A DNA stretch of 64,000 bases from Peribolospora baueri (Eukaryota): positions 62,001 to 126,000 of the forward strand of contig JAMDHS010000037.1 of NCBI GenBank assembly GCA_029717555.1. The letters run 5' to 3'. This document shows, piece after piece, positions 17,378 through 38,500 of this stretch; positions within the stretch are counted from its first letter, which is position 1; every line of letters begins with the position of its first letter. A program made the translations under genes and the position numbers. Under the pieces are notes generated by a model. The model was not told where the DNA came from and searched no databases. It saw nothing but the letters and a program-made list of their open reading frames with translations.

Positions 17378-18471
17378 ATGAGCGAGAACGTGGTGGTGGA
17401 TACCGACAGGATCCGACGCTGGCAGAGGTGCGCAGTGCGGGGGACGTGGGGCTGAGCATGGACAGCGATCGACCGCCATGGTGGCGAGGCGAGCTGACAC
17501 TCTTGCACCCCGCACTGCACCACGCACGGTAAAGGGACCAGCTTGACCTTGGACAATCTCTGCTCGCGACCGATTCACCTCGTCTCTCCCCGCTGCCGCC
17601 AGAACTGCTCATCGCGGGCCTCGACATCACCTACCCCGTCCGACCCTTTCCGAACGCTCCGAAATCGGCCGTCGCCTGCGTCGTCCTCGTCCACTATCCG
17701 TCTCTTCGCGTCCTAGACACCCATTTGGAGGAGGTCGAGGTCTTGGAGCCGTATGTCTCCGGCTATCTTGCTTTTCGTGAAGCGCCCCCTTTGGTTCGGA
17801 CTTTTGAGCGGTGGAAGGAGCAGAGGGCGCGCGATGGCTTGGATGGGCCCGATGTCGTGATGGTGGACGGCAACGGAACGCTGCATCCCAGAGGTGAGGC
17901 GGGGGGGGGAGCGCGATGAATGCTGCCGCTCGAGACTTGCAAACCTGGCCCGGCCCGTCTTTGACCACGCGCGCCGCTCCACAGGCTTTGGCTCCGCATG
18001 TTATATTGGACTCCTGCTCTCCCTGCCCACCATTGGCATTTCCAAGAAGTGGACCGTCTTTCCTGGGAGCGACACCCGCACTGCTGACGGCGTGCGGGCG
18101 CAGTTGGTGCGAGACAAGGCGCAGGCGTGCGAAGGGAAGGAGAAGGAGAAGGAGGATGGCGTGGTCTGGCTGTCCGACGCTCGCGGCGAGGTCCACGGAG
18201 CGGTGAGCGCTGCGCTCGCCGCGGTCGAGCAATGGCCTGTCCGAGTCTTCTGAACCCCCTCGACCTCTGTTCCTTCTCGAAGCAGGCCGTCCTTCCACCT
18301 TCTTCCTCCCATCCCCTCTACGTCTCTCGCGGCCACCTCATCTCCCACACCACCTCAGTCCAGCTCGTTTTAGCCTGCTGCCAGTACCGAATCCCGGAAC
18401 CCGTACGCCAGGCCGATCTGCGAGGCCGCGACTATGTGCGCACCCGTGATGGTGTCGACGGAGCGTCGTAG
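17378..18471 (+). CDS. Endonuclease V (inosine-specific nuclease), about 4 exons
   Basis: Spliced protein MSENV...IAGLDITY, PYVSGYLAFRE, VMVDGNGTLHPR|GFGSACYIG, PTIGISK, PLYVSRGH and YRIPEPVRQAD. The canonical EndoV motifs and acidic catalytic residues are present. Confidence 0.93.
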
Positions 18472-19091
18472 GTCCCCGTTTGGTGCTCCCGTGAGCTAGG
18501 AAACGTGAACACATCGTCCGTCCAGGATCTGGACCAGAGACACTGACTGGCCGAGACTTTTGCGATCGTGAAATACGCGTCGTGTCGTCTGGCATTGCCT
18601 TGCCTATCTGCCGTCCTTGATTTTGTAGCGGTACAGAGTACAGCTGTTCAAACGGCTTGCGAGCGCTCTGCCCCGCCCCAGACATCGTTTATTACGCACT
18701 TGTCCGTGTATGTATACCTTCTTCCAATCAGACAATGAATGGCGTTTGCCTAACACACGTCCCGCCTCGCCGCGCCTTCCGCCTTGCTGGGTAAGGCCGC
18801 AAGAACGCCAGACGCTGATGTCCCCCCGATGCGATCGATGCCCCCGGTCCGGTCCATGCGACACTTGAGCGGCTGCAAGCTCTGAAGGCCGCCCAAGTTC
18901 GCCTCCTCGTCGTCGCTGTTGCCATTTAGCCGGGCATCCGCTTCGGCAGCTCGGCCCGAGGAGCTGGGCAAATAGCCCCGCGCGCGGGGGGGTCGATCGA
19001 GGGCCCGCCCGCCTTTCTGTGCCCCGACATGACAACCATTCTCTTTTCGCGGTTGACGACGCCCGTCCGTCCGACTTGTTTTTTGCCGTAA

Positions 19092-22000
19092 ATGGTTACG
19101 GATCCTGCTAAGCCGACAAAAAGACGTCGTCTGTCTGCGCAGCGGCAGGCCGGTGCGGACGTCGGCGAGGGCAGCAGCGTACCTGGAGGGGAGACGCAAG
19201 CGAAGCCCAAGAGGGTCACACGCGCTTGCGATCAGTGCTGTCAGTGAGTTGGTTGGCGACGACTTTTCATGTCGGCGGCTGAGATCAGAGCGATCATATC
19301 TGACGTTCTCTGCCCCTTAGGAAAAAGGACAAGTGTGATGGGCAGCGTCCCACCTGCTCCATTTGTCACACCACCGGCTCCGTCTGCACGTATGATCGGC
19401 CGACGAAGAAGAGGTGCGGTCCGTCCTGTTCGCAAGTCTGTGTCCGCGCCGTCCGTCGGCTTTGACCGTTCCTCACGCTTGTCTCATCCGTTCATCCAGG
19501 GGGCCCCTCACGGGAAAGTCGTTCTTCCTCCAAGCTCGCATCGAGCGTCTCGAGGCGTTCCTCGGCTTCCTCATCCTCTCTTCGCCATCGCTCCTCGTTA
19601 CCGCCGAAAACCTGCTCGGCCTAAACCCACCTGCAGCGAGTCCAGCCGGCGCGTTGACAGCATATGAAGAGACGCTGGCGGCCAGCAAGCTTTCAGCATG
19701 GACCGTGGAGGAAGAGGTGGCAGTATGGCGGCGCACAAGGGCTAGGGTAGCATTGGAGAAGGCGCGTCCACTACCGGCGATACCGGGGTACGAAGAGGCG
19801 CTGCCGAAAGCAGGACACGCTGGACACCCGCTCGAGACGATCGGTGGTGGTAGCTCTTCCCTGCCTTTATCGAACAACACCCAGTCATCCCCGACACATC
19901 TTGGCCCGTTTGCCAAGTCTCCAGCCCACACGTCCCCATCGTCATCCCTCCACCTGCTCGCCGACGCGTCGGCCAGCCATCCAGCTGTGTCACAATCCGG
20001 TGGAGAGAGCCGACTTTCCTCCGATACCACTGGCGTCGAGGTGCAGGACTCTTTGGTGGACGCATCGTCGGTCGGGGTCGGGGACTATGACGGCGACGAC
20101 GGCCATGACACTGGCCGCTACGAATCATCGGGCGACTTTTGGAAGAATGAGGGCCGTCCTGACGTCCTTCGCTATGCTGGACCTCCGAGCGGCATGTACA
20201 TGCTTCGAGAAGCAGGCGCTCACGACGCGCGAAGCAGGGGTCGTGACTGGACGCATTCCCGGCTTGCAAGTCCCGACAGGGATCTTGGACGATCTGACGG
20301 GCTCTCTGCGACATCGGCGGTCCCGCCGGCAGAACGGGACGGCAGGTCACATGCTGCATCTCTGAGCCTCGCGACCGCCGCATCCCTCGGCAGCGTCCTA
20401 TCTCTACTCTTGGATGAGATTGACACACTCGTCGACGTCTACTTCACCTATTTCCACCCCTTCTTCCCTTTCGTTGACAAGCAGCTCATCCTGCGGTGGT
20501 CAGCTCGACTCGCCTCGGGAGAGCTGCATGCCTTTGAAGACGATGGTGGGGTGTACGTAGCGGCGATGCCGACTTTGCAAAGGGAGCACCACGCACCCAT
20601 CCTTGTCATGATCGCCATCGCCACCGTCGCTTGCGGATACTTTTCGCAGACGCCGTACTCGGATCCGCCAGATACCCTGTTGTCAGGCGAACGCCTTCAC
20701 TACTCCCGCCTAGCCTCCCGTTTCGCGTCAGTATCCCACTCTCAGCTCTTTCACTCCGTCGCCGCACACTCTCCCGACCTCTTCTCTGTCCAGGCCGCCC
20801 TCTTACTTTGTCTCGCCGACTTGCGAGAAGGAAAGGACACCAGGGCATGGGTCCTCTGCGGAATGGCCATCCGTATGGGTCAAGACCTTGGCTTGCATCG
20901 CGCGTCGGTGGAGCGCGAGTCGGCCCCTCCATCGAGGCAGGGCCGTGGCGCTCAGGCGGTCGCACAGGACGTCGGAGCTTCCAAGACGTCTCCTGTAGCT
21001 CCGGAAAAGGCGGCGACGACGAAGGCCAGCTACGCCGTCACTATGCATGCGGACGCACAACAGTCACAACTGTGTCGCTTAACGTGGTGGTCGATCTTTA
21101 CCATAGACGCTGTAATGGCCCTCCAGCTGGGCAGACCCACAGGCATCACCCGCGGCGGGTTCGAGACGGAAATGATCAGCGTGGACGGTCCGGAGGATTG
21201 GGAATTCTGCAAGGTCCCAGTGGAGCAGGTGACGCCGGGATCGAAGCCCCTCCGTGGCCCGGGCCCCACGAAAAGCGTGAGGGCTCAGGCGCTGACTTGC
21301 TTTGCAGCGCTGGCAAGGTTGTCCGTTATCATTTCCGAACTGCACAACCTGGTGAGCGGCGTTTCAAGCTATGTTTAAGGAACTCGAATGTTGACTGGGT
21401 TTTCTCCATGTGTTTGTTAAGTACGCCCTCCCCCCCTCGATAGAGAGACGCGCCCCGACTCTGGTTCCCAAGCTTGTCGGACGCCTCGAAGCATGGAAGA
21501 AGAGCCTCCCCCAGAACCTGCTGGCAGTGATCGATAATTCAAATGCGCCTGCGCAGGAGCAAAGCGGTCTGTCTGGCCTCAGGACGAGACCCGTTCCGCC
21601 AGCCCAGGTCCTCAGTCTGGCAATGCTCTTCCACACTACCATCATCGTTCTCTTCAGGCCTTTGTGAGTGCAGAGATCTAATAGAGTTGGTTTACTTCTT
21701 CTGACTGACATCTCGTGTTGTTTTGGCGACAGCTTGCACACCTCTTCCCTTGGCCACCCTTCCTCTTCTGCCATCGCCATGTGCGAAACGTCAGCCTCGG
21801 CGCTGTCCGCCCTCCTGTCTCGATTCGTTGCCGCCTATTCGCCAGTCCGGGCTCCGCCCTTCTTTTCCTACTTTGCTATGACGTCTTCCACCATCCATCT
21901 TTACAACTTTTGCTTCTCCAAAGCCGAGGAGCGCGGCCGGCGGGCGAGAGAGCTCTTGGAAGGCGTCTTGCAGACCATGAAGCGGGTATCGCCGTATCAA

Positions 22001-22896
22001 GCGGCGACAGCGAGGGTATACCGACTCGTTCGCCGTGCTTTCGACAGCCGACGAGCAGCGATACAGCTCGGCCCTCCGCAAGACCCTGCTGGCGACGGCG
22101 AGCCGCGTCTGACGACGACGACGAGCCAGCTTGCCCTGCCGCCGCTTGACGGCTCAGACGCCGTCACATCATCAGATCTACGCTTCGGTCCACCCCTATG
22201 GTCTCACCCTGATTACGCGGGCGTGGCGGCCTCAGCCGCCAGCGATGATTTCCTGAGTCTCTTTGACTGGAGCCATCCTCCCATTGGACCGCCCTTCTTC
22301 GACCCGTCTCCGCCCTTCCCTTCCCTTGCCGATCGCTCTGTAGCGACCACCCAGGAAACTCCATCTGCTGGCGCACCGTTCAGCTCCATGTCGGTTCTGG
22401 ATCGATTCAGACCTGCTGGCGCACGGCCGGAGGTTGTGGATGGCAACACCGAGGGTCCGGTTCAGGTCAGCTCTGGCGCTAGTCCAGGTCCAGCTCCGGA
22501 CGACGTTTCATTTGCTCCCCCTCCGGGTCGTTTCGAGTGGGCCGGTCTGTGAGTCTTTGACTATGTCTGCGCGTATGACCCGCTGCTCACCTCCTCCCCC
22601 CTCCCCCCGGTCCCCCTTCCCTCGACAGCGACCAAGCACACGTGCTCTATCTCCTCGGGCTTCAACGGCATGCGACGCCTGGCGGCTCGCCAGCAGACGC
22701 AAACACCGACCCGTCCTCCAGTGCTCTTGCGGAAATGGCGGCTCCAATATCGACAGAGCCGGGAACGGCGGCCTCTAGAGCAGCATCGGCAGCGGGCCCA
22801 ACATCGTCCCCACGCGCAAAGGGCGCACCGGCGGATGGGGATTTTGACGGCATGGTGGCCATGTGGTCGCACCGTGGAGGGCGTCTTTCCGGCTGA
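19092..22896 (+). CDS. qutA: Zn2Cys6 quinate-pathway activator (QutA/QA-1F-like)
   Basis: The spliced binuclear cluster RVTRACDQCCQKKDKCDGQRPTCSICHTTGSVCTYDRPTKKRG fits C-x2-C-x6-C-x6-C-x2-C-x6-C. A fungal TF middle-homology region is present (YFTYFHPFFPFV, AWVLCGMAIRMGQDLGLHR, RLTWWSIF, LGRP). A final exon 22629-22896 follows intron 22549-22628. Orthology is inferred from cluster context and remembered similarity to QutA. Confidence 0.85.
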
Positions 22897-23070
22897 ACGG
22901 TATCCCAGAGCGTATCATCATCGTATCGTGTAAAACAGGCGGCGAGCGCAGAGTTTTGGGCTGTGAACGACCTTGGACGACCTGTATTTTGTGTCAGCTA
23001 TAGTTTGTATTGTGATCGTTGCGTGTCACTCGGAACGCCGTGCGTGGGGGCATCGCAGTGGGGAAGATGG

Positions 23071-23088
23071 CGGCTAAAAGTCGTCCCG
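23071..23088 (-). promoter_or_regulatory. Candidate activator site CGGGACGACTTTTAGCCG (CGG-N12-CCG) upstream of the repressor
   Basis: 15/18 identical to the site at 33031; about 130 nt upstream of the repressor ATG. Confidence 0.7.
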
Positions 23089-23218
23089 ACGGCTCCGCGG
23101 CCTCTCCATCATCCGGGGTAATCCTTGATGGCGAAGACGATCTGGCACGCACACGCAGCCCGATCCCTCTCCTTTCTCTCAATTCTTAGCAAGGACGACG
23201 ATCTTACCGTGCGCTATC

Positions 23219-25839
23219 ATGACTGGCGAGGATGTGCTTCATCGACCGGGTCGCTACGCACCGCACGCGACGCTGGTGCTCATCGGCTTCCGAGCAGTGG
23301 GCAAGGTGAGTGAGCAGCCCAACCAGCAACCGTGCGAATGATTAATGACCGCCTCTGAACCGAACGAGCGCTGAGACTGTGCTCGTAGACGACCCTCGGC
23401 CTCATCGCAGCCACCCACATGCGCCGCACCTTCCTCGACGCCGACGCCTACTTCCGCACGAGGACAGGCGTGCCCGTCTCAGAGTACGTCGCTCGCCACG
23501 GCTGGCCCTCTTTCCGAGAGCGCGAGAGCGCCCTGCTCGCCGAACTTTTGCACACTCATCCGACCGGCGCCGTCCTATCCTGCGGCGGAGGCGTAGTGGA
23601 GTCGGCAGAGAGCCGTGAGCTGCTCTGCCAGTACGCTGAACGAAGACCGGTTATCTACATTGTGAGGAGAAAGGAGGAGGTGCTGGCGTATCTCGAAACC
23701 CACCTGGCGGCGCCAGCGTGGAACGAGCACATCCTCTCCGTTTGGGCGCGACGGGAGCCGTGGTATCGACAATGCTCACGGCACGTCTTTGTCAACATGG
23801 CCGAGTCTGGTGCCAGCGTCTTACCCGGACAGCCCCTAGAGCCTCTGGCTCTGAAGAACGTCGAGGAGAGCTTTGTGCGATTTCTGAACGCCATTCTCCC
23901 ACCGGCCGGCAGTCCGTCCTCTTCACGATTCGTCTCCTCGCTACTCTCGAAGCACACCACCACTGTCACCACGTCGTTGGCCGACCTGGACGCTTTGTCC
24001 TTAGCCGCCTTATCCTCGCTGGCCGAGGGAAGTGACGTGGTGGAGCTGCGAGTGGATCTACTCGACTGCATTCGTTTAGCGTCGAGAAATGGAGCCCCCC
24101 AGGCGGAAGAGGGGGACGGCATGGAGGTCGAGCAGGGCGACGACGATCGGGCCCCCGATATCAACTGGGACGTTCTGGCATGGCAGTTCGGCCATCTCCG
24201 GCTGTACTGTCCCGGCGTCCCCGTCCTGTTTACCGTACGATCTCGATCTCAGGGAGGTTCTTTCGACGTCGCAGGCCCCAAGGCGGCGGATCTCTACTCT
24301 CGACTCCTGCGCTTCGGGCTCGCTCTAGGCACCGACATGATCGACGTGGAGCAAGTGTGGTCCGACGCGCTCGTCGCCGACATCGTGACGGCCGCCCGGC
24401 AGAGCGTGGGGACAGCCACCGGCGAGCCGATCGTAGTGGTCAGCAGCTACTTCGATCTCTCTGGAGAGACGGATTGGACAGGAGAGCTGGGCATGCGAGC
24501 GCGATACGAGGCAGGGAAACGAGCGAGAGCAGACGTGGTCAGGTTAGTGAGCGCGGCCGGCGACGTCGCGGACAATTGGCGCCTACTTGCCTTTCAAGCG
24601 ACGGTCAACGCCGCTCCGGCGCCCGGAGGTCGACGAGGTCCGCCACTTGTCGCTTACGATGTTTCTCCGGCAGGTCGACCGTCGCGCCTGTTCAATCCCC
24701 TCCTCACGCCGGTATCCCATCCGGGTGACGTAGGCCCAGACTGCGTGTCGGCACGACAAGTAAAACTTGCCCTCGGTCACATAGGTCTTCTCAAACGGCG
24801 AACGATTTTCCTCGCCGGCCTCGGCGATGGCTCGAGAGGCGCCGTGGCGATGTGCCAAGCGGCCGCGGACGCTGCCGGCCTCCCTGTTCTTGTTGGCGCG
24901 GACCGAGGCAACTTGGGTGCTGTGATAAAAGAGAAGGACTTTGGGGCCATCATGGGTGACCTCACATCAGGGGACGGGGTGCTCTTTGATCACGTCGGCG
25001 AACTAGGCGTTTCCGTCAGCGATCCAGCGCGGCAGGCGCGAGCATTTGACATGGTCGCCCGTCGCTCTGTCGGAGGGACGGAGGAGACATGGTTCGTTGG
25101 TGATTTTCTTCTTCCGTCCGCGATCCAAGCCGTCGTGCGAGCCAATCTGGCGCCCATCAACGCTGTCGGTCCGGGAACGACGGCACTGGTGGTAGATGCC
25201 ATGGAAGGCGAGCATGGGGGGACGGGCTTGACAGTCAAAGCAGTCCTCATGGCGTTGCGGCAGATGGGTGTGCGCAGGGTCGGATGGGCGGACCTGAGTG
25301 ACGGGCACACGGCGGGCGGATCAGAACACATCGCCAAGGACGATGACACTGGATTGCATCGATTCCCGGCTCTCGACGTGGCGGCCGCACTGGCGTTCCT
25401 GCGAGATCGTCCCTCACGGCCTGAAGACGGGATCACCCGCTCCCTGCCGTCGATCATCTTCCTGCTCGACGGCATCAGTGGCCCCAAGACGAGTCTGTCG
25501 GACGCTTTCTTCGCTTCTCCCACCGGCGGCCTCGTTGTTCATCTCCGCCCTTGGCCGTTCGACTGTCGTTCTCGCCCGTCCGACCACCTCCCGCCATTCC
25601 TTCCTCCCTCTATTCTCCCGCGAGGAGAGTCGGAGGCGAGCATGCCTCAGCATGTTCGCGCTCTCACTCGCGGCGCGCCGCCTTTCAAACTAAACCGCGG
25701 CTGGCTTGCCGTCGGCGAAGAGCACGTTCGAGAGGAATGGCTGGTGAATGGCTGGGAATCGATCACAGGCCAAAAAGCTCCAAGATGGAAGATGCGTGCA
25801 GCCGACACCTCTGTACTCTTACAGTCTCCGACATTCTGA
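23219..25839 (+). CDS. qutR: Quinate repressor (QutR/QA-1S-like): shikimate kinase-like, type I dehydroquinase-like and degenerate shikimate dehydrogenase-like domains
   Basis: Motifs TLVLIGFRAVGK|TTLG (P-loop, split by an intron), GWPSFRERE, CGGGVVE, ELRVDLL, VLFTVRSRSQGG, DMIDVE and GRPSRLFNPLLTPVSHP. The domain order matches the C-terminal three domains of AROM, with catalytic residues substituted. Confidence 0.85.
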
Positions 25840-25927
25840 TGATGATAATTATGACTACTACTACTACGACGACGATGATGATGATGTTGCTCAAACTCAA
25901 GATGAATGAACCTAGCCTCCATCACTT

Positions 25928-27177
25928 TCACTTTCCCCAGCCCTCGTCTGGCTTGCTTTGAATGTCTCCCATGTTCTCGATCAGCCGCCGGGCCTGCTCT
26001 TCGACCGCCGCGCCAAGTGGACTCTTGTCGGCGGCAGCGGCGGCGGCCTCTTCGGAAGCCTCGCCGAGCGCCCACATGCGTTGTTGCGAGAGGCCTTGCT
26101 CGATCACTGCGTAAAGGCGGAAGTCAAGAGGCGAGGTGAGCTGGACGGACGGTCATGTGCGAGAGGCGGACAAGGCACCGACTTACTCGCGACGATGCCG
26201 CCGACCTGGCTCCACCCGTATCGGCCAGCCATTTGGAGGATGGGCGTCATCCGAGGCTTGTAGCACATTTCCAAGAAGAGACGTTTGGGTGGGAGTGGCA
26301 ATCCATCGTCGCCCTCCGGTCGAGACGCGGCAGAGAGCGGGGGCAGGGAGAAGAGTTTCTCCGCCAGGGCGTACACCGCCTTTTCCCCCTCCGTCTGTGG
26401 TTCGACGGCGGGGATGGCGCCCACGCCGAGGACGACGGGCCGCTCGGCGAGCTCGTCGTCCGAAGGAAAGTCATGTGCGCGCTCGAGGATGCGAATGTCG
26501 AGTTCGGGGAAGGCGGCTTTTACAGCCTCCATTTCGGACCGGTCTCGGTTCAAGAGGTAGATGCGATCGAGGTTTAGCTTGCGGAGAGCGTAGCAGGTCG
26601 AGCGAGCGGTGCCTCCGCCGCCGATGAGAAACGCCGAGTACTTTCGGGGTTGAAAAGCAGAAGAAGGGGTAGAGATGAACGTGGAAGGAGGTAAGGAGGA
26701 GTCAATGGCGAGTTGTCGGAGCAAGGCGTGTCGGACGCCGAGGTGGTCAGTGTTGGTTCCGATGAACCTCTTGCTCCCGGTCTCCGCCTGCCGCTCGACG
26801 ACAATGGTATTGACGGCGCCGATCGACCTCCCGGCGTCGGTCAATCCGTCGAGGATCGCCCCGGGCTGGCCAGCGGTAGAAGCGACGGCGACCTTGAGCG
26901 GCATGGTCACCGCTGAGCCGGCGAAGTATTCATCGTCGCGGACCGAGGCACGAAAGTGAGGGTTGTCCACGGTCTTGGTATCGACGAGGTCAAAGACACC
27001 CAGGGGAGGAGCGGCCGAGCCTGAGGAGGCTGTCTGGGCGTCGTGAAGGGCGCGGAAGATGGCATTGTGGAGGAAGGGAGAGGCGGAGTGAGAGATGGGG
27101 TAGCCGTAGAGGTGGAAGCGTCGCGTCGCCTGGTCGTGCGCGTGCTCCTCGAGCGTGGCCGTAGCGGTGGTGGTCAT
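25928..27177 (-). CDS. qutB: Quinate/shikimate 5-dehydrogenase (QutB/QA-3), 2 exons
   Basis: Motifs GYPISHSASP, GSAVTMPLK, GAVNT, GTNTD, IGGGGTAR and EMCYKP. The second exon reads MIEQGLSQQRMW and ends at a TGA at 25928-25930. Confidence 0.9.
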
Positions 27178-27362
27178 GCGAGCGCAGCGAAGAGATGTCT
27201 GGCGGCGCGAAAGGAAGAAGGAAGGACGACTGAGAGCGAGGAAAGCGAGGGAAGGAGGCAGATGGCGGCGACGAGGCAAGACGTATGTGTATTTCTGAGG
27301 GAGAGTGTTCACCGTGCGCTGCTGCGGCACCCGGGCCTTCCTTTCTTTCCCCGCACTGTCGG

Positions 27363-27380
27363 CGGCAAAACGTTCGGCCG
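27363..27380 (-). promoter_or_regulatory. Candidate activator site CGGCCGAACGTTTTGCCG in the divergent qutB/qutG promoter
   Basis: CGG-N12-CCG, 12/18 identical to the 30024 site, lying almost midway between the two ATGs. Confidence 0.55.
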
Positions 27381-27546
27381 CGCGCCGACGGCAGGTGGTC
27401 GCGTGTCGTCGCTACGCGTGTCGTCGCTCCGTCAGTCAGTCCGTCGGTCAACCCCCGTCGTCGCCGTTCCGTCAGTTGATCCGTTTCCTAACCCCTCGGC
27501 TCTCGCTCGTCCAACCTCCTCCCACCCACGAACGAGCGACGACGCC

Positions 27547-28968
27547 ATGCCATCTGACGCCGCGCTCGAGCACCTGGCCCCCGGCGTGGACCTCCCCGCC
27601 GTCCACGATCACATGGTCGAGCTCGCACTGACCGCCGGCGCCTTTCTGCGTGCCAACGCGCTCGCCCGTACTCAGTTCTCTTCCTCGGCCTCCGCTTCTG
27701 CACTGGCGCTCAACGTCCAGGACAAGGAGAGCTCGGTGGACATTGTCACAGAGGCCGACACCGAGGCCGAGCGCCTGATCCTGAACGGCATCCGAGAGCG
27801 ATGGGCGGCGCACGGGCACAAGGTCATTGCCGAAGAGACCTACTCTGGCGGCAAGGACAAGCGGTTCCTCTTGGACGACGTGGGTGCCTGCCCTCGCCTT
27901 TGTGGTCTCCTTTTGAAAGCCTCTGGTTGACACTTTCTTCGCGCCTCCGTCCAGGCCCCGACATGGATCGTGGATCCCCTAGACGGCACGGTCAACTTTG
28001 TATGTCGCTCTCACCGCGTTCCCACGGACCCGAGAGGCCCACCGCTTACCGTTGCTCCTCCTCTTGCAGACCCACCTCTTCCCCCTCGTTTGTGTCTCCA
28101 TTGGCTTTTGCGTCAACAAAGTGCCCCTTGTCGGCGCCGTCTACGCTCCAGTCCTTAGTGGACTGAGTCCTGCCGCGGGCGGCACCTTGTTCTCCGCCGT
28201 CCGAGGCAAAGGCGCGTGGCAGTCCTATCCCCCTCCGAACGCGTCCGGTAGCGGCCTCGATCATTCGGCCGTCAGGCTGTCCGCCCTTTCCTCCCCTCCT
28301 CCTTCTCTCTCCGTCCCGCCTCTCCGTCTTCCCCTCGCTCCGCCGAAACCTCTGCCGCGCGAAGCGCCAAAGGGCTGCCTTTTCGCCTCGGAATGGGGCA
28401 AGGACAGACGGGATGGGCCAGAGTCGAACCTACCGCGCAAGGTCGCCAGTTTCTGGAACATGGCGGCCGAACTCGGCGGCCGCGGCGGTCGTGGAGGGCA
28501 CGTGAACGGCGTGCGGAGCCTGGGCAGCGCGGCGCTGGACATGGTCCTCTGTGCGACGGCTGCGGTGGATATTTTTTGGGAGGGTGGCTGTTGGGAGTGG
28601 GTGAGTCGTCTCGTCTTCGCACTCGCCCCCGCTCCCACGTTCGCCCAAGCTAAGAGGGGGTCGTTTTGTTTTGTTTCGTTTCGTTTTTCAAGGACGTGTG
28701 CGGCGCCATGGCGATCCTCCACGAGGCTGGAGGCGTCGTCTTCGACGCCAACCCATCGCCGTCGGCGTCTTTACCGACGACGCCGCTTCAGGAGGCCTCG
28801 CTCGGCGGACGACGATATCTGGCCATTCGCGCGTGCGCTCCGACGGTCGACGAGGGGGGCAGGGAGGTGGAGACGCCGAGACAAGCGCAGGAGAGGGTGG
28901 CAAGAGAAGTGTACAAGAGGGTGGAGGCGCTGACCTACGTGAGGGAGTGCGTCACATATCCTCCTTGA
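27547..28968 (+). CDS. qutG: Inositol monophosphatase-family protein (QutG/QA-X), multi-exon
   Basis: Motifs VDIVTEAD, IAEET, WIVDPLDGTVNF, GVRSLGSAAL and WEGGCWEW|DVCGAMAILHEAGG. Confidence 0.9.
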
Positions 28969-29083
28969 AGGACGCAAGGTTGGAATGTACACAAACTTGA
29001 GACGGACGGTCGCGATGCTGGAATGTACGGACTCGAGTCGGACAGACGCGATGGAGGGGAGTGAGCTCCGTTTCCACCTCGGG

Positions 29084-29741
29084 TCACTTCTTCTTGAGCC
29101 CGTTGTCAAGCACGTGTGAAAGGGCGGCGTGATAGCCGTAGGCGCCCATGCCCATCAGGACGGCGGCGGCCTTGTCGGAGAAGAAGGAGTGGTGTCGGAA
29201 GGGCTCCCGAGCGTGCGGGTTGGAGCAGTGGACTTCGACGAAGGGGATTTCGACGCCGAGCAGGGCGTCGCGAAGGGCGACAGAGGTGTGCGTCAAACCG
29301 GCCGGGTTGATCTGCCGGCCGTGGTAGGAAGAAATAAGGGAGCGGTGGGCCCGGGGGCGTCAAGGGGCTGGCCACTGGCCACTGGGCGACGGACGGCACG
29401 GGACGGACTCACGATGATGGCGTCGACGCCGTTTCCCTTGGCCTGGTGGATGCGGTCGATGATCGCGCCCTCGTAGTTGCTCTGGAAAGCGGCCAAGCGA
29501 GCGCCTCGCTCTTCGGCCAGCTCCTTTGCTCGACGCTCGACGTCGTGGAGCGTATCGTGGCCGTAGAGCTGGGGCTCGCGCGTGCCCAAGAGGTTCATGT
29601 TGGGCCCGTTGATGAGCTGCAGCGCGGAAGGAGAGATCGGTCGTCGAGCTCAGCAGATGCCCATCGTTGTCGTTGTTGTCGTCGTCGTTGCGCTGACGGG
29701 CAGAGCCGGCCAGCGTCGCTCACCAGAACGTTTTTCGCCAT
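29084..29741 (-). CDS. qutE: Catabolic type II 3-dehydroquinate dehydratase (QutE/QA-2), 3 exons
   Basis: Motifs [57 protein letters not shown] and [19 protein letters not shown]. Confidence 0.95.
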
Positions 29742-30023
29742 CTTCGATCCTCAGCGCTGTTGGTCCGAGCTGATGACGACTTGGGCACGGATGCGAGGGT
29801 GGCCATCGCAGGCGCTTTTGAGCGCCGAGAGTGCCCCGCTCACTGTTTCATCTTTTGTCCGGGGTGCGTCGACGAAGCTCGTGGGCCGTCCTGGACATGA
29901 CATGCCCTCCGTTCGTTCTCGCTCGCTCCCTGCCCACCGGTGCGTTCGTTCACCCGGCGACGACGACGATGACGACGACGTTGTGGTCAACGGATGCTGC
30001 GCAGAGCGGAAGGTGGAAGAAGG

Positions 30024-30041
30024 CGGATCGACTTTCTGCCG
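30024..30041 (+). promoter_or_regulatory. Candidate activator site CGGATCGACTTTCTGCCG in the divergent qutE/qutD promoter
   Basis: 15/18 identical to the 33031 site, lying near the midpoint between the two ATGs. Confidence 0.7.
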
Positions 30042-30359
30042 CGGGCGGCCGCAGCCGATGGCGGCGGCAGGCTGTCGCTTCGGGCGTCGGGTTCAGAACG
30101 GTCGCCCGCCAGGGCACCGACGGGGACAAGGCCGCCATGCCAAACGCCAAGCTGGCGACGAGGACGGGCTCCTCTCCAGTCTTCCGTCGGGCGTGCGGGG
30201 GGAAGGAAGGAAAGGAAGAATTGCGGGGTAGTCGCTTTCGCTAGCCGAGCCATCGATGGATCGATGGAACTGAACTGATCCGGCTCGTCATCTTCCCGGC
30301 TATATCTAACTTGCGCCTCGTCGCCCTCGTCGCCCTTCCCCCTCCCACCACCTTCCCTC

Positions 30360-32460
30360 ATGGTCAGCCTTCGACGAAAAGATGACGGCAGGACGCCGGC
30401 GGCCGTCTACAACTTTCGCGTGTGGGCCATGGCCGCCATCGCGTCCATGGCTTCCGTCATGATCGGGTGCGTCCAAGCGAAGGCGGCCCCCCGCTCGCCG
30501 GCTCAAGCTCACCCTCTCCTCCCCCTTTTTTCTTTCTAGGTACGACTCGGCCTTCGTCGGTGGCACTCTCGCCCTCCAGTCTTTCGTCAACGAGTTCGGG
30601 GCGCTCACTGGCACTACGCAAGCCAACATCGTCTCCGTGTACCAGGTCGGCGCCTTCTTCGGCGCCTTCTTCGGGTACCCGCTCGGCCACTTCCTTGGCC
30701 GCAAAAGGGGCCTCTTCTTCTGCGCCGCCTTCTTCACCATCGGCGCCGCCGTCATGTGCGCCACGAACAAGTCCACTGGCCTCGCTCCCCTGTACGCCGG
30801 TAGGACGCTCGCCGGTCTCGCCATCGGTTCCGCCTCCAACCTGACGCCCATCTACATCGCCGAGATCGCGCCGACGGCCATCCGAGGACAGCTCGTCGGC
30901 GTTTACGAGCTCGGATGGCAGATTGGCGGTCTGGTCGGCTTCTGGATCAACTACGGCGTGGATCAGACCATGGCGCCGAGCCATAGTGAGCACCACCGGC
31001 CGCGTTGGACCGTCGCCTCCGTTCGCAGTCGCTCATAACCCTCCGCTCCGAACGCAGCCCAATGGCTCATCCCCTTCGCCATTCAGCTCATCCCCGGCGC
31101 TCTCTTCTGGATCGGCACCCTCTTCCTTATCGAATCACCTCGTTGGCTCCTCACTAGAGGCCGCGAAACGGAAGCGATGGCCGCGCTTTCAAGAGTCCGC
31201 AACCTGCCCTCCACAGATGCCTGGCTCGTCGACGAGCTCGCGACCATGAACGCCGCCGTCCTCGACGAGCGCCGTCTCACCGGCGATGGCTTCTGGGCGC
31301 CCTTCCGAGAGACCTTCCTCGTCCCTCGCATTCTCCGCCGCGTCCTCCTCGGCTGCTCTCTCTTCATCTGGCAGAACGGCTGTGGTATCAACGCGATCAA
31401 CTGTGAGCATCTTCCACGCGCACGCACGCACGCGCCCCTATTCTTCTGCTCACCGCCTTCGTTCGTCGTTCTGCGCAGACTACTCTCCCACCGTCTTCAA
31501 GTCGATCGGCATCTCTGGTACCAGCACATCCCTTCTTTCCACCGGCTTGTTCGGCGTCATCAAGACCGTCGGCTCCATCGTCTGGATCCTCTTCCTGATT
31601 GACCACGTCGGCCGACGGATCCTGCTCATCGTCGGCGCCCTCGGCGGCTCCTTCTGCATGTACTACATCGCTGCCTACCTGGCCATATCCAAGGTTGGCC
31701 ACCGCCCGCCGTCTTCGTCCCTCTCGCCCGGCGGAAAGTCCGCCTTGGCCTTTTTCTACATCTGGACTGTTTTTTACAGCCCGACATGGAACGGAACCCC
31801 TTGGGTGTGAGTAACTCGGGCAGGCTGTGAGATCAAGTCAGCCTCTGTCGCACGGCACGCCGTCTCACCGCCCTGCGCTCCTTTACCTTCGCTCGCAGCC
31901 TCAACTCGGAAATGTTCATGCAGCAGAACCGCACCCTTGCACAGGCGTGCGCAGCCGCATCGGTGAGTGACTGGGTGCTCTGTTGACGCGCTTGATGATC
32001 ATCTCGTACCTCGTCGGTCGCGTCGTTGGTTCTGACGTTGGTCCGAACGATTTGCCTCCATGGGCCGTAACAGAACTGGCTGTTCAATTTCTGCATCGCG
32101 AGGTTCACACCTCAAATGTTCGCCGCGATGGGATACGGCGTGTACCTCTTCTTTGCCTCGCTCATGGTCCTCGCCGCCATCTACGTCTACTTTCTCGTCC
32201 CGGAAACAAAGTGCATCCCGCTAGAGGAGATGGATAGGCTCTTCTCGGCGCCCGTGCGTCCGTGGAAGGCTCACGCGTGGCTCACCGCCGAGCTCGCCTC
32301 CCGGCCTCACCTGAGCGGCGGTGCCGCGCCAGGCCTCTCTCAGGGCCAAGGCAGCCAAGGCGACCCGGAGGCGGGGAATGGGTACGGCGAGACGAGCGGG
32401 CCAGGCGACGAAAAGGAGGGGAAGGAGGCGATGACGGCGCACGTGGAGCGCATCGCTTGA
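30360..32460 (+). CDS. qutD: Quinate permease (QutD/QA-Y; MFS sugar porter family), multi-exon
   Basis: The N-terminus RTPAAVYNFRVWAMAAIASMASVMIG|YDSAFVGGTLALQSFVNEF is QutD-like. Also present are PIYIAEIAPTAIRGQLVGVYELGWQIGGLVGFWINYG, ESPRWL, WQNGCGINAINYYSP, WNGTPWV and PETK. Confidence 0.92.
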
Positions 32461-33030
32461 CCACCAGCTAGCTCGACCTCACGCTTCTTCGGAGTCCGGG
32501 TGCCTTTTTTCACGGATCATGTAATCTTATTTTCTTTTGGTACGCGGTAGTCTACCTGCCTGACTTGCTTGGCGCACTCGCTCGCTAGCTGGCTGCGTTC
32601 CCGGGCCGCACGCACGCACGTCGTTCGTTCGTTCGTTGGCCGTGGGAACTGTTTCGTACCAACAAGCACCGAGAGGTGCCTTGCCTGCATTCGACAAAAA
32701 GAAAAATCGGCAAAGAGAATGAATAAGTCCGCATTGTTCTGAAGAGGCGACTGCGGGCGGAAACGTTTAGGCGGTCTGTGTGTGAACTTTGCCCGCCTTG
32801 CCTTGTCTTCCGTCGTGAGACATGGCATGGCAGTTCGTCGAGTCGACGGAGAGGGGGAAGGTGCTGTGGCGCCTTGAGCTCGGCCGGCGAGCTACGTGGC
32901 CGACAGGTGTGCGTTTGTCTGTCTGTCCGGTGCGCGCAGTGGTTTTTGCTTGTCCTTCGTCATCCGCGATGACGGCGAGACACTCGAACCATCACCGTCT
33001 GTCGTCGCTCATCGGACGCGCGGGCAGGGG

Positions 33031-33048
33031 CGGGACGACTTTCTTCCG
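33031..33048 (+). promoter_or_regulatory. Candidate activator site CGGGACGACTTTCTTCCG upstream of qutC
   Basis: CGG-N12-CCG with the shared CGACTTT core. A second CGG-N12-CCG without the core follows at 33050-33067. Confidence 0.7.
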
Positions 33049-33508
33049 GCGGAGTCCGTCTGGTCCGTGTCACCTGGCGCGTCTGCGGATGATCGTTGTC
33101 TACGGGCCGTCATTGTTCCTCCACCTCTAGCCTCTCGCTCTCGCTCTCCAAGCGCTTCGCCTCGCCTATGCTTTCGCTCTGCCTCACCGGCCGTGGCGGC
33201 TCCGATGTGCCATCGGCGGCGAGGGCGGGGGTAGGGACGGTGGGAAGAGGACAACAGTGCAGCGCAGAGAGCGAGCGTCGCTGGCCCAGGTCGTGGATAC
33301 GATAAGTATCGCAGACAGCGACGCTCCCAACCAACGTCGCCGCCCTCCATATCATATCGTCTGTGCACCGTCACCTGGATAGCAAGCACCTCATCTCATC
33401 TTGGCCCTCATCTTCATCTCCAATCGGCTCATACCGCTTGCCGTGGCAGTCATCGCCGTCGGACGTCCCGTCTCAACAAACTCACCCTCCGCTCCCCCAT
33501 CGCCTACC

Positions 33509-34843
33509 ATGTCCTTTCCACTACCGCCTTTCTCCATCGCCACCATCTCCCTCGGCGACTGCGCTCATCACGCGTTGGACGACAAGTTGCGCGTCGTCGC
33601 TGAAGCGGGCTACCGCGAGGTCGAGGTCTTCCAGGCCGACCTGGACGCTTTCGCGCGGTCACCTCGCTTCGAGCACATCCCTCTTGCCTCCTACTCCCGG
33701 CCGTCATGCCTGCCGGAAGCGAGAAGCGACGCAGAGTACCTCAGCCGTCCGGAAGCGTGGAACGCCACGGCCCACTTGGCCGGCGAGGCGCTGCGCTACC
33801 TCCCCCGCGAGCTGGCCGCCGCCAAGGAGATCGGTGCGCTGGCCGAGCGGCTGAACGTCCGGATCAACTCGCTTCAACCTCTCCGCGACTTTGAAGGTTG
33901 GATCAAGCGGGAGAAGCGGGACGAGGTGATGAAACACGGCCACAGTCGATTCGCCGTCATGCGCGAACTCCGCACCGACCTTCTCCTCATCCCTTCTTCA
34001 TTCCACGTCCCCGGCCGTCCCGAGGCGGACGCCGAAGGAGGCGTGAGCGGCGACGACGAGACGGTGGCGCGGGACCTGGCCGAGCTGGCCGACTACGCCG
34101 CCGCCTTCTCCTCTCCCATGCGCATCGCCTACGAGGCTCTCGCCTGGGGCGGCACCGCGTTCACCTGGCGAGCGGCGTGCAAGAGGGTGTCGCTGGCGAA
34201 CCGGCGCAACTGCGGGCTCGTCATCGACTCATTCAACCTCGTTGGCAGAGAGTGGGCCGACCCGGCGAACGCGTCCGGAAGCGGCCAAGTGGACACAAAC
34301 AGGAAAGAGACGTGGGAGATGGCCGGGGCGACAGTGGACGCGAGGTTGGCCGCCAGTCTGGCCGCGCTCAAGCGTGAGGTGCCCATCGAGCGCATCTTCT
34401 CGTTCCAGGTCGCCGACGCCGCCTTGGTCGACCCGGCGGAGGTGACGCCGGCCGAAGGGGACCCACGGCCATCGCGTCTGCTGTGGAGCAGGAGCAGCCG
34501 ACTGTTCCCGCTGGAGAAGGACCGACGGGCGTATCTGCCCATCGCCGACGTGTGCCAGACGCTCCTTGAGATGGGCTTCACCGGCGCTTGGAGTCTGGAA
34601 GTGTTCAACAAGAGCTTGGCGAGCGATGACCCAGATACGGTCCGACATCACGCCGATCGAGGCATGCGCGGCCTGTCGAGGTTATGGGACGAGGTGAGGA
34701 GAAGGGCGGGCGCGGGTGGTGGTGAGGAGGAGGAGGAGAGCCCATCCACCGCCCCCACCGCCTTCATCGCCTTTCATGTCGACGCCAGGCCGTTTTCGAT
34801 GGACGCCGCGGAGAGCGAGTTGGTGCCTGTCGTGGCGAATTGA
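33509..34843 (+). CDS. qutC: 3-dehydroshikimate dehydratase (QutC/QA-4; xylose isomerase-like TIM barrel), apparently intronless
   Basis: Motifs SIATISLG, LQPLRDFEG, AYEALAWG, VIDSFN, FQVADA, WSRSSRLFP and SLEVFN, which include the metal-ligand positions of the family. Confidence 0.88.
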   Translation: MSFPLPPFSIATISLGDCAHHALDDKLRVVAEAGYREVEVFQADLDAFARSPRFEHIPLASYSRPSCLPEARSDAEYLSRPEAWNATAHLAGEALRYLPRELAAAKEIGALAERLNVRINSLQPLRDFEGWIKREKRDEVMKHGHSRFAVMRELRTDLLLIPSSFHVPGRPEADAEGGVSGDDETVARDLAELADYAAAFSSPMRIAYEALAWGGTAFTWRAACKRVSLANRRNCGLVIDSFNLVGREWADPANASGSGQVDTNRKETWEMAGATVDARLAASLAALKREVPIERIFSFQVADAALVDPAEVTPAEGDPRPSRLLWSRSSRLFPLEKDRRAYLPIADVCQTLLEMGFTGAWSLEVFNKSLASDDPDTVRHHADRGMRGLSRLWDEVRRRAGAGGGEEEEESPSTAPTAFIAFHVDARPFSMDAAESELVPVVAN

Positions 34844-35520
34844 GGATCGATCGATCGCATGCCGTCCGTCGTTTGTTCGTTTCTCTGGTCGCCGTGCCGT
34901 GACAAGTATTTCTTCCCAGTCCGTGAGAATGCATACCACCATCCAAGTGCGCGAAGTTATGATCATCCAAAGAGACGAGACGAGACGAGACGAGACAAGA
35001 CGAGACGCACGACGAGAGTTACCTTTGTGCGAGTCGGAGCGAGTTGAAATACGCCGACCCTTTCTCAGTAGTCCTTTTCGCGACATCACAATGCAATGAC
35101 TCCCACGTCTTCTCCACCTTCCTTCGAATCAAATTCCGCATGGTATGGACTTGTACGCAACACGCCCCCAAGGAGGCGGCCGGCCACCGACGGCGACGGG
35201 CGAGTTCAAAGACGGAGAAGAACATGCATGGAAAAAAGGTCGACTGGAGACCGACGACGAGCAAGCGAGTGGACCATCGAAGGGGAGAGTAACCAGAAAA
35301 AAATAACTTGGGGCGAGCGAGCGAATGGGGCCGACAGGCGAAACGACGAACGAATAGAATGGAGACGAGAAGACCACGGAAGAAAGAGTTGCCAAAGAGA
35401 ACCAGACCAGATAAAGTGAGCGTCCCGGGGCGACCACGCGAAGAACCAAGAGAAGAGAACGAGGGCTAGTCAGGAAAGGAGTGAATATCGTCTATGTGTA
35501 TGTCCAACCGCGACCTCGGG

Positions 35521-38500
35521 TCAGCGGGGACTGCGATTGCCGCTTGACGTCGTCGAATGGGCGCCGGGCAAGTTCGGGGACGCGCTGGGGGCGTAATCGG
35601 AGGGCGTGCTGATGTTGTTGAAACCGTGGCCTGGAGACGGGAAGCCGCCGCCCAAGGGAACGCCCATAGGCATGCCGCCGATCATGCTCATGTGCGAGCC
35701 GGGGCCAGGCATACCGAACGGCATGCCCATCATCGGTGGCGGGGGCATCATACCTGTCCGAATAACACGTCGGTCCGAAACCATCAGCTTCTCCGCTTCG
35801 TCTTGACCAAACCCAACGCTTCATTCCAGAATGAGCAGCGATGGCCCTCACCGGGGAAGGGAGTGGACATGGACATATCGCCCTGACTCGTCTGGACGCC
35901 GGCGACGGACGCGGCTGAGGACAGGTTGCCGTGTTGGGGGGATAGCCTGAGGCGAGGGGAGAAAATCGACTCAGAAGATGATACCACGACAGGCACGAGC
36001 GGGAACAAACGGCACTCACGCGTTTTGATAAGCCTGAGCAGCGGCGGCCATGGCTGCGGCTTGCTGGGGGTCGAAAGCCATGCTGGCTCTGGGATCGAAC
36101 GGGGGCGGGCTGCCGTGACCTCGCATGTTGTACATCATGGCCTGCTGATAGGCCATCTGCTGCATCATCTGCCACTGCATCTGCATCGCCCACGGGTTCA
36201 TGTACGGGTTGCCAGGGAACATACCACCCTGCATGTAAGGCTGAAGCTGGCCCTGGCACGGGAAGGAAAAATTGACAAGAGTGTTGAGCGGATAGATGAA
36301 TGAATGAGACGGACGGACGGCCGTGGTGGCTGAAGAACGACCGACCCGACTACTCACCTGTTCCTCCATCTCCTTCATTCTCTGGTCTTGCACCCTCCTG
36401 TCCCTCTCCCGCTCCGTGAGCGTAGCCCCAAAGCCGCCCTCCCTCTTCCGTTCAGCCTGGTGAGCGTTGATGGCGCCGACGAGACCAACCTGAGGCTCGA
36501 CGGGCTTGTTCGGCATGTGCACCAGGCCCTCGCCCTTGGCCCGCGCGTCCATCTCCTGCTGTCGCGCCGAGCGCTCCGCCTTGTCCTGGGCGCCGGCCTG
36601 CAGGAGGCCGTGCGGGGCAAAGGCCTTGCTCATCGATGCCGTCGTCGGCTCCTCGTCGAGGCTGACGAATGTCTGCTTGGCGTTGGCCGGGGCGCCTCCG
36701 GCCACGCCGTAGCTGGCCGCCTGTCCGTCGGCGCCGTACACGTCGCCGTGAGCGCCGCCGAGGACGTTGGCGAACATGCTCGAGCGATGGTTCGACGGCT
36801 GGAGCAAAGGGTGGCCAGAGCCTGGGCCGACATGGGTCGGTCCCAATCCCGAACGAGGCTGGTCGGAGTCCTGAGGCGGCGTGCTCGTCGTGCGCGCGCT
36901 CCGATCGTCGCCGCCGCTGTACCGGCTGGGCGAGCGCGAGGCGGCGCGCAAGCTCGCACCTCCGCCGATGCTGACGGGACGCGCAGGGTGGAGGTCGTCA
37001 GTGTGCTGGGCGTAGAGCGGCGTGGGCGGGAAAGGTAGACCGGCGGCGTGAGCGGTCCGGCTGAACTCTTCCGCCTCGTGGGCCGAGATGTTGGGAACGC
37101 CCGGAGGGGGAGGCAGCGTCCTGCTGGCACGACGTTGAGGCGGGTTTGACGACGGAGACAGGTTGGAAGGGTGACGGGGGCCCGGTACGTTGAGCGCGCC
37201 AGCCGACGTGGTCGCGCCCTCGCCTTCGTCCGAGCTGGCCTCCTCTTCCTCCTCCGCGCTCTCCTCGTCCTCCTCGCTGCTGCTGCCCCACGCGTTCCTC
37301 GCCTTCTTCGTCCCCCTGACGCCCTTGTCCTTGTTCGCCTTGCCGGGCCTGTGCATGGCCTCTTGCTGAGCCCTCTCCAGCTGCTTGGCAGCCGCCATCC
37401 TTTCCGCTCCTTTCTTGTTCCGAGCGAATGAGCTGGGGAAAGGGCCGGAACCAGCAGGACGGGGACCGGCGAACGAGCTGTCCTCTTTCGAAGACCTCGC
37501 CGAATCGGCGGTGTGCGAATCGGTGCTAGGAGAAGCGGCCGAACGACGGGATTCACCGGCGAAGGAGCGGTCGACGGGGGACGGCGGTTGAGCGAGGAAG
37601 GCGTACGCAGCGGCGGCTTCGGGCGCGAGACCCTCGTCGAGAGACGTCTTCTTCCTCGGCACCGAGTCTCGCTCGCTCAGTCCGCCGGGAACAGAGATTT
37701 CAGCTTTGGGTGGCGGAGGCCGTGTCGGCGTCGCTTGGGGCTGGGGCTGGGGCGGCGGCGGCGGCCTCTCGGTAGCTTTCGCGGGCGGTGGAGGACCGAA
37801 GGGAGGGAGCGCTTCGGACATGCCGATGTAGAAGAGCGCGCCGGGTTCGTCGTAGTGGTACTCGGCGCCATCCGTCGTGCGCGGCTGCTGTTGAGCGGTG
37901 GGGGTCGGCGTCTGCTGTTGATTCAGCAGCTTGTCCTGGGCAGGCGGCGGCGACGGAGGCGCCGCCACCGCTCCGTTCGCCCTTGCGCCAGCCGTGTTGG
38001 CGCTGTTGAGACTGGCCGAGCTGTTGCTCCCGTTGTCGTGCCACGGCTTTTCAGGTACGGCAGGAGGGGGGCCGGTGGGTGCGGAAGACGGAAGGGCTGG
38101 AGCGGGATGGACGGGGAAGCGGGGATTGGGCGAGTTGGCGAACATTGGCGGGGGCACGCCGTTATTGGCCGATGGTACGGTGGGCGCAGAGGAAGGATCG
38201 ATAGAGACGTGAGCGCCGGCGGGGTCGAAGCCTTGACCGCGCTGCGCCGCCGCGTTGGTGGCCGCGTTCCTCTCCCTCTCCCAGAGCACGGCCGGGGGCG
38301 GACCGGGGGCGGGCTGACCTTCAAGGCTGGCGGCGCTGCTCTCCATGCTCTGCCCAGCTTCCATGCTGCTGGCCGCCATGGAGCCATGCCTTCTGCCCAT
38401 CGTGTTGCCGAACGTGCTCGCCCCCGCGCTGCTACCGCTCCCGGCCCTGCCGCCTCCTCCGACACCGATACCGGCACCGCCGGCCGCGTGTGAGCTGGGG

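Follow-up and report, generated by a model that had tools for sequence, protein, structure and literature searches.

A nearly identical trio of CGG-N12-CCG sites, with a fourth of the same geometry, as candidate activator sites in a basidiomycete quinate-utilization cluster

The DNA examined here is a 64,000-nucleotide stretch from Peribolospora baueri (contig JAMDHS010000037.1, positions 62,001 to 126,000; hereafter, the window), which has a G+C content of ~62% and contains a quinate-utilization (qut/qa-type) gene cluster between 19 and 35 kb. An earlier note on the window had reported an 18-bp element, CGG-N12-CCG, with one copy in each target promoter of the cluster, and had proposed it as the binding site of the activator encoded there. 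We found that three of the four reported copies are nearly identical in sequence, whereas the fourth, at 27363, shares with them the geometry alone. Sites are named below by their first position.

Gene identities were assigned by Pfam matches to open reading frame (ORF) pieces. Start codons and introns were taken from the sequence and translations, and splice sites were deduced, in the case of the activator from GT..AG. The resulting genes and the four sites are listed in Table 1. The gene for a Zn2Cys6 activator adjoins that for a repressor with C-terminal AROM domains, and this pair lies among genes for quinate enzymes and a permease. The SKI plus DHquinase_I arrangement of the repressor is the AROM-derived architecture of QutR and QA-1S, as described in PMC10512348, and homologues of the repressor have the same AROM C-terminal domains. 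Judged by this domain content, the region from 19 to 35 kb is a fungal quinate-utilization cluster. The best named relatives of the qutC product came from Tilletia, Pseudozyma, Kalmanozyma and other basidiomycetes, with 32–45% identity. Because the best relatives of both this protein and the activator are from that group, and those closest belong to the Ustilaginomycotina, we assign the cluster to a GC-rich basidiomycete, probably a member of the latter subphylum. Public runs that contain the sequence amount to about 23 million letters in all.

Table 1. Genes of the cluster and the four 18-bp elements (window coordinates)
Feature	Position	Strand	Remarks
Cluster activator, Zn2Cys6 factor	19092–22552	+	Pfam Fungal_trans (E 1e-19); Zn_clus on exon 2 (E 1.3e-07)
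Activator exon/intron model	exon 1 19092–19243; intron 19244–19320; exon 2 19321–19413; intron 19414–19499; exon 3 from 19500	+
End of last activator ORF	22552	+
QutR-like repressor	23219–25839	+	Short first exon, then ORF 23419–25839; Pfam SKI, DHquinase_I
qutB-like quinate/shikimate dehydrogenase	26104–27177	−	Pfam Shikimate_dh_N
qutG-like, inositol monophosphatase family	27547–28933	+	Pfam Inositol_P, two ORF pieces
qutE-like catabolic type II 3-dehydroquinase	29084–29741	−	Three exons; Pfam DHquinase_II, E 7e-22
qutD-like permease, MFS sugar transporter family	30360–32460	+	Several exons; Pfam Sugar_tr, three ORF pieces
qutC-like 3-dehydroshikimate dehydratase	33509–34843	+	Pfam AP_endonuc_2
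Site 1, CGGGACGACTTTTAGCCG	23071–23088	−	131 bp upstream of repressor ATG (23219); member of strong trio
Site 2, CGGCAAAACGTTCGGCCG on + strand	27363–27380	− as reported by the earlier note	Midpoint of qutB/qutG divergent promoter; near-palindrome
Site 3, CGGATCGACTTTCTGCCG	30024–30041	+	Near midpoint of qutE/qutD divergent promoter; member of strong trio
Site 4, CGGGACGACTTTCTTCCG	33031–33048	+	461 bp upstream of qutC ATG (33509); member of strong trio, best consensus match

All four 18-mers were present at the coordinates and on the strands reported. Each lies in non-coding DNA between the derived gene models and, as had been claimed, together they cover the promoters of the six non-activator genes. 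They are located 131–461 bp upstream of start codons and are central in both divergent promoters, the site at 27363 being 9 bp off the center of the 369-bp qutB/qutG intergenic region and that at 30024 being 18 bp off the center of the 618-bp qutE/qutD region; the description of these two as near the midpoint was thus accurate. The statement that all sites have one orientation holds for their alignment but not for their relation to the genes, because the repressor site is inverted and the qutC site direct relative to its own gene.

The sites at 23071, 30024 and 33031 form a trio, each in a separate cluster promoter, with the consensus CGG-[GA][AT]CGACTTT[CT][TA][GT]-CCG. Pairwise identities within it were 15/18, 15/18 and 14/18 over the whole element and 9/12, 9/12 and 8/12 in the spacer. 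Inspection by eye bore out the earlier count of 15/18 for 33031 against both 23071 (as reverse complement) and 30024, made up of nine of the 12 spacer bases and the six triplet bases. The two halves of the element, CGGGACGAC and CGGMWGAAA, are unlike, so that it is asymmetric. When the 40 bases on each side were compared, the flanks were unrelated among the sites and the likeness ended at the 18–20-bp element; because of this, we conclude that the trio element is a discrete motif and not a duplicated piece of promoter. Copying of promoter DNA between genes of the cluster could have left 18-mers that are alike by common descent rather than by selection for binding, and an identity of 14–15 of 18 is closer than in many functional site sets. 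The flanking likeness stops one or two bases to either side, however, the element is bounded exactly by the inverted CGG and CCG triplets, and the orientation relative to the genes varies between sites; we consider such an origin highly improbable.

The four promoters total 2,703 bp, or 4.2% of the window. They contain eight of the 52 CGG-N12-CCG sites of the window, with 2.2 expected (binomial p = 0.0014; Bonferroni 0.09), which is the strongest promoter enrichment among 63 zinc-cluster dyad classes. The members of the trio are the most mutually similar of all 52 sites: a spacer identity of 9/12 was reached in just three of the 1,326 site pairs, two of which are within the trio, and its third pair (8/12) was in the top 18. 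A search with the trio consensus allowing up to three mismatches returned only these three sites in the window, against a shuffle mean of 0.11. The degenerate consensus offered earlier for all four sites gave four matches with none expected, a count that is circular because that consensus was written from the same four sites.

Significance was assessed with a dyad-guided test that mimicked the search behind the earlier note, accepting any of 39 dyad classes with three sites in three promoters at the same identity thresholds. An equivalent trio occurred in none of 1000 dinucleotide shuffles and in one of 1000 control sets of real, non-cluster sequence; that single case was a triplet repeat. We conclude that, granted the zinc-cluster prior, the trio is very unlikely to be a coincidence.

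The cluster encodes a single transcription factor, the Zn2Cys6 protein. After splicing it contains C-x2-C-x6-C-x6-C-x2-C-x6-C at residues 46–73, the canonical cysteine spacing, in a DNA-binding domain that is split by an intron. A leucine-rich stretch begins 22 residues past the last cysteine; with the zinc cluster, a linker and this stretch all present, the protein would be expected to dimerize. Over the DNA-binding domain and linker it is identical at 49 of 80 residues to a C6 factor of Ceraceosorus bombacis, and those of its relatives that carry names are C6 factors from Ceraceosorus, Violaceomyces and Agaricomycetes. A word-based protein search with the activator gave no match at E ≤ 1e-10. 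An exhaustive search of 1.84 billion representatives gave 249 matches at E ≤ 0.001, of which 16 were below 1e-10 and a single one below 1e-30, and by that measure the protein is extremely divergent.

Zn2Cys6 dimers bind inverted CGG triplets separated by a fixed spacer, which is 11 for Gal4, 10 for Put3 and 6 for Ppr1, and Gal4-type dimers often do not read the spacer. The sites described here resemble those of the Gal4 class in having two inverted CGG triplets and one spacer length in all four cases, and the candidate protein has the canonical Zn2Cys6 cluster, linker and leucine-rich stretch of that class. They differ in that the spacer is 12 bp long and, in three sites, strongly conserved in sequence.

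The sites can also be compared with those of the Neurospora activator QA-1F. Its upstream activating sequence, QUAS, is a 16-mer with GG-N12-CC spacing (PMC8257575, Methods), and the 14 Neurospora QA-1F sites, given as 6+4+6 patterns, have the same spacing and also a conserved spacer (PMC3114802, section 20). The earlier note had drawn this parallel in spacing, and both papers agree with it; the 16-mer string that it gave, GGRTAARYRYTTAYCC, was not found in the literature searched (open-access PubMed Central papers and bioRxiv). All four sites here have the GG-N12-CC spacing, are intergenic, divergent promoters included, and belong to the same pathway, in a cluster where a Zn2Cys6 activator stands beside an AROM-derived repressor together with quinate enzymes and a permease. 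Scored with a half-site matrix derived from those 14 Neurospora sites, each of our sites had one positive half (8.2, 4.8, 2.0 and 4.4 bits), and the sequences GGCTAA and GGCAAA are found unchanged among the half-sites of Neurospora.

The differences from the Neurospora sites are as clear. The other half of each site (GGGACG, GGATCG, GGCCGA) scored −7.7, −2.4, −2.4 and −7.7, and by the Neurospora half-site model the whole sites ranked 39, 30, 46 and 77 of 372 GG-N12-CC 16-mers. The sites here are GC-rich, with full CGG and CCG triplets and without the AT-rich TAA...TTA core, and they lack AT-rich GGRTAA-type half-sites on both sides at once. QA-1F sites are partly palindromic, whereas the trio is asymmetric. 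Each promoter here has one to three dyads, against 14 sites listed for the Neurospora cluster; the sites serve six genes and none lies upstream of the activator gene; and the host is a basidiomycete whose activator had no named QA-1F or QutA relative among the clusters examined. The Neurospora-type AT-rich consensus, with up to three mismatches allowed, was absent from the promoters, its only match being in the qutB coding sequence. It was set aside as an element of this cluster, so that the role of such a site is otherwise unfilled.

These comparisons bear on the earlier suggestion that the binding geometry is conserved while the spacer is lineage-specific. The spacing is indeed equal and the promoters contain no Neurospora-type site, but one half of each site is still QA-1F-like, so that the suggestion is roughly right but the spacer is not wholly lineage-specific. 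It is possible, although we lean against it, that ever since Ascomycota and Basidiomycota separated, quinate activator sites have retained the GG-N12-CC geometry but not the recognized sequence. An AT-rich 16-mer with partial palindromy would then, with the same reservation, have become a GC-rich 18-mer that is asymmetric and has only one half still QA-1F-like. A paper on quinate utilization in Aspergillus niger contains no binding-site analysis, the term "binding site" occurring 0 times in it.

Taking the sites and the gene content together, we consider it somewhat probable that the trio, and perhaps 27363 too, are upstream activating sites of the cluster's own Zn2Cys6 activator that work as QA-1F sites do. 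The protein would bind the 18-mers as a homodimer, with one zinc cluster at each inverted CGG triplet; the linker and coiled coil would set the 12-bp spacing, and additional contacts would read the conserved asymmetric spacer. Such reading of the spacer fits the QA-1F class of activators, because the QA-1F site has a conserved spacer as well. By analogy with QA-1F/QA-1S and QutA/QutR, the QutR-like repressor would hold the activator in check until the appearance of quinate or of one of its metabolites, and the bound activator would turn on the repressor gene, qutB/qutG, qutE/qutD and qutC.

Several results weigh against this assignment, and a first group of them favors a chance likeness, picked out by a search for zinc-cluster dyads in a GC-rich genome that is rich in CGG and CCG. 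The bare CGG-N12-CCG pattern is no more frequent in the window than expected by chance: it occurs 52 times, the shuffle mean is 54.08, and a count of 52 or more was seen in 62 of 100 shuffles. When the four reported sites were left out, the promoter share was 4 of 48, with ~2 expected, which is no clear enrichment. In a comparison of 18-mers made free of any prior, the motif ranked first among complex words, but 6 of 200 shuffles and 39 of 120 sets of real sequence equaled its score of 30/36, as did 22 of 200 such sets after a low-complexity (simple-repeat) filter. In an unrestricted scan of trinucleotide dyads (3,639 of 43,564 classes tested), CGG-N12-CCG was outside the top 25, and no class in the top 25 survived correction. 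Because at least five of the dyad classes are represented in each of the four promoters, the presence of one site per promoter is weak evidence by itself. On the other side stand the rarity of an equivalent trio in the dyad-guided test, the location of three sites, one per promoter, within so small a part of the window, and the scores on a model of the trio spacer, which were 18.6–19.5 bits for members of the trio versus −0.3 for the highest-scoring of the remaining 49 CGG-N12-CCG sites. We regard chance as a decidedly unlikely explanation of the trio.

The same spacer model separates 27363 from the other three sites. Its spacer scored −2.2 bits, indistinguishable from background, and a hand count gave only 5–6 of 12 bases identical to the trio spacers. 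It was second best of the 49 non-trio sites on this model, and with the full trio matrix its rank in the window was about 17th to 21st. At the density of the window, a bare CGG-N12-CCG is expected in about one in four regions of 370 bp. We conclude that 27363 is outside the tight sequence family of the trio and has the geometry in common with it. Unlike the trio it is a near-palindrome, its halves CGGCAAAAC and CGGCCGAAC agreeing at seven of nine positions. The qutB/qutG region also contains a half-element, GGACGACT, 47 bp upstream of the qutB start, with six copies in the window, three of them in cluster promoters. The chances that 27363 is functional are about even; it is probably a second, divergent site of the same activator that would serve qutB and qutG.

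The remaining contrary points concern the protein that binds. An asymmetric spacer like that of the trio is unusual for a simple homodimer. No QutA- or QA-1F-named relative of the activator was present among the 20 clusters looked up, which had generic C6-factor names or none (a further 130 listed matches were left out). There was no CGG-N12-CCG upstream of the activator gene between 15704 and 20100, and the best trio-matrix score near its start, 6.3 bits, was in coding sequence at 19114. The segment 18400–19091 upstream of the activator is accordingly without a dyad site, unlike qa-1F and qutA; autoregulation by QA-1F and QutA is reported in PMC5780447. Finally, CGGN12CCG is also the consensus of an unrelated Zn2Cys6 factor, AtrR of Aspergillus fumigatus, according to PMC10294635. 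Because AtrR has this same dyad and spacing, the spacing alone does not name the binder.

The trio could therefore be real and yet be read by another factor, either an AtrR-like Zn2Cys6 protein or a second factor on the CGACTTT core of a composite element, in which the surrounding CGG and CCG triplets would be incidental or would belong to the activator. In addition to the shared AtrR consensus and the lack of a site at the activator gene, this explanation gains from the fact that what is conserved in the trio is its asymmetric spacer, a part often unread by Gal4-type dimers, and that the spacer core is absent from the qutB/qutG promoter. However, the sites are confined to the promoters of one pathway cluster with its own Zn2Cys6 factor, and the spacer of the QA-1F site is likewise conserved. 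The AtrR targets named in PMC10294635 are genes for sterol synthesis, drug efflux and azole resistance, and iron uptake, often beside SrbA sites, whereas the genes that flank the sites here are those of the quinate pathway. We judge a different reader of the trio to be unlikely.

The sequences around the sites contain several other features. A second, unrelated CGG-N12-CCG lies beside two of the strong sites, at 23098–23115 (9 bp away) and at 33050–33067 (1 bp away); because the arrangement differs in the two cases, a fixed tandem architecture is not evident. These two dyads and the other extra promoter sites, at 30281 and 32885, have spacers unlike that of the trio and were set aside. The 10-mer TGTCGTCGCT has exactly four copies in the window (27404–27413, 27419–27428, 33000–33009 and, on the minus strand, 1700–1709), three of which, in the qutB/qutG and qutC promoters, are 22–39 bp away from CGG-N12-CCG sites. 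With one mismatch allowed it occurs 12 times versus 7.65 expected, which is not notable. The 10-mer could represent a second element or, because its GTCGTC complements the GACGAC of the trio, a degenerate half-site. A 13/18 match to the qutC site lies at 35369–35386, outside the promoters, where qutC and a Q/P-rich gene converge at their 3' ends; it shares with the qutC site the 10-mer CTTTCTTCCG, has TGG instead of CGG and is probably due to chance.

(GAC)n/(GTC)n triplet repeats are present in 29650–29990, in the qutE intron and the qutE/qutD promoter. They draw contigs from elsewhere in the genome, with many loose ends, and depth roughly doubled over 29340–30006. Such repeats also dominate naive motif scans, and the triplet-repeat and CT-rich words at the top of naive similarity scans were set aside as candidate elements. 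The top dyads of the unrestricted scan, for example CGT-N10-TCA, were not significant after correction.

Contigs of a close relative (public runs X3 and X4, ~2.3% substitutions) were aligned to 18001–38000. The differences listed include a 91-letter replacement at 23055–23058 and a 19-bp deletion at 23134, which flank the site in the repressor promoter, as well as the loss of 1 bp at 27382, only 2 bp away from the qutB/qutG site. None of the indels listed falls inside a site; at this divergence, an unchanged 18-mer is weak evidence. A metagenome scan with the repressor alignment gave 80 loci, almost all of which were AROM-like genes as judged by tblastn, and the apparent qutB matches at these loci came from the C-terminal domain of the AROM genes themselves. 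No canonical qut cluster was present among the 80 loci, with 0 matches to qutE. Metagenome contigs L063/L064 (350–11520) contain a different fungal quinate-type cluster, with an inositol-monophosphatase-like gene, a Fungal_trans factor, an MFS transporter and a single long reading frame that joins AP_endonuc_2 (dehydroshikimate-dehydratase-like), glyoxalase/HPPD-like and type I dehydroquinase regions; this cluster is without a QutR-like repressor.

The element described here is a new sequence variant of a well-known type of site, in a system undescribed for this lineage in the literature searched. That the trio is a site for the activator is plausible; the prediction is reasonable and can be tested, but it is not surprising. 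If it fails, the annotation of the cluster stands and the sites become another CGG-rich coincidence. Our search for a cis-element for quinate regulation in a basidiomycete found none in open-access PubMed Central papers and bioRxiv; within that scope, the trio, if confirmed, would be the first to be proposed. Its matrix would then allow other members of the regulon to be sought, such as the protocatechuate genes, whose regulator in A. niger is described as unidentified in PMC12610400, and the trio could add an orthogonal part to the widely used QF/QUAS expression system. Should the geometry of the site have been kept between the two phyla, the very divergent basidiomycete QutA-like factor would form with its site a second, orthogonal pair of the Q-system type and would be a natural case of a homodimeric zinc-cluster protein that reads two unlike half-sites. 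If the trio is the activator site, the features of the qa/qut switch would be sorted into those that are conserved, namely the spacing and the logic of the cluster, and those that drift, namely the sequence, the symmetry and autoregulation.

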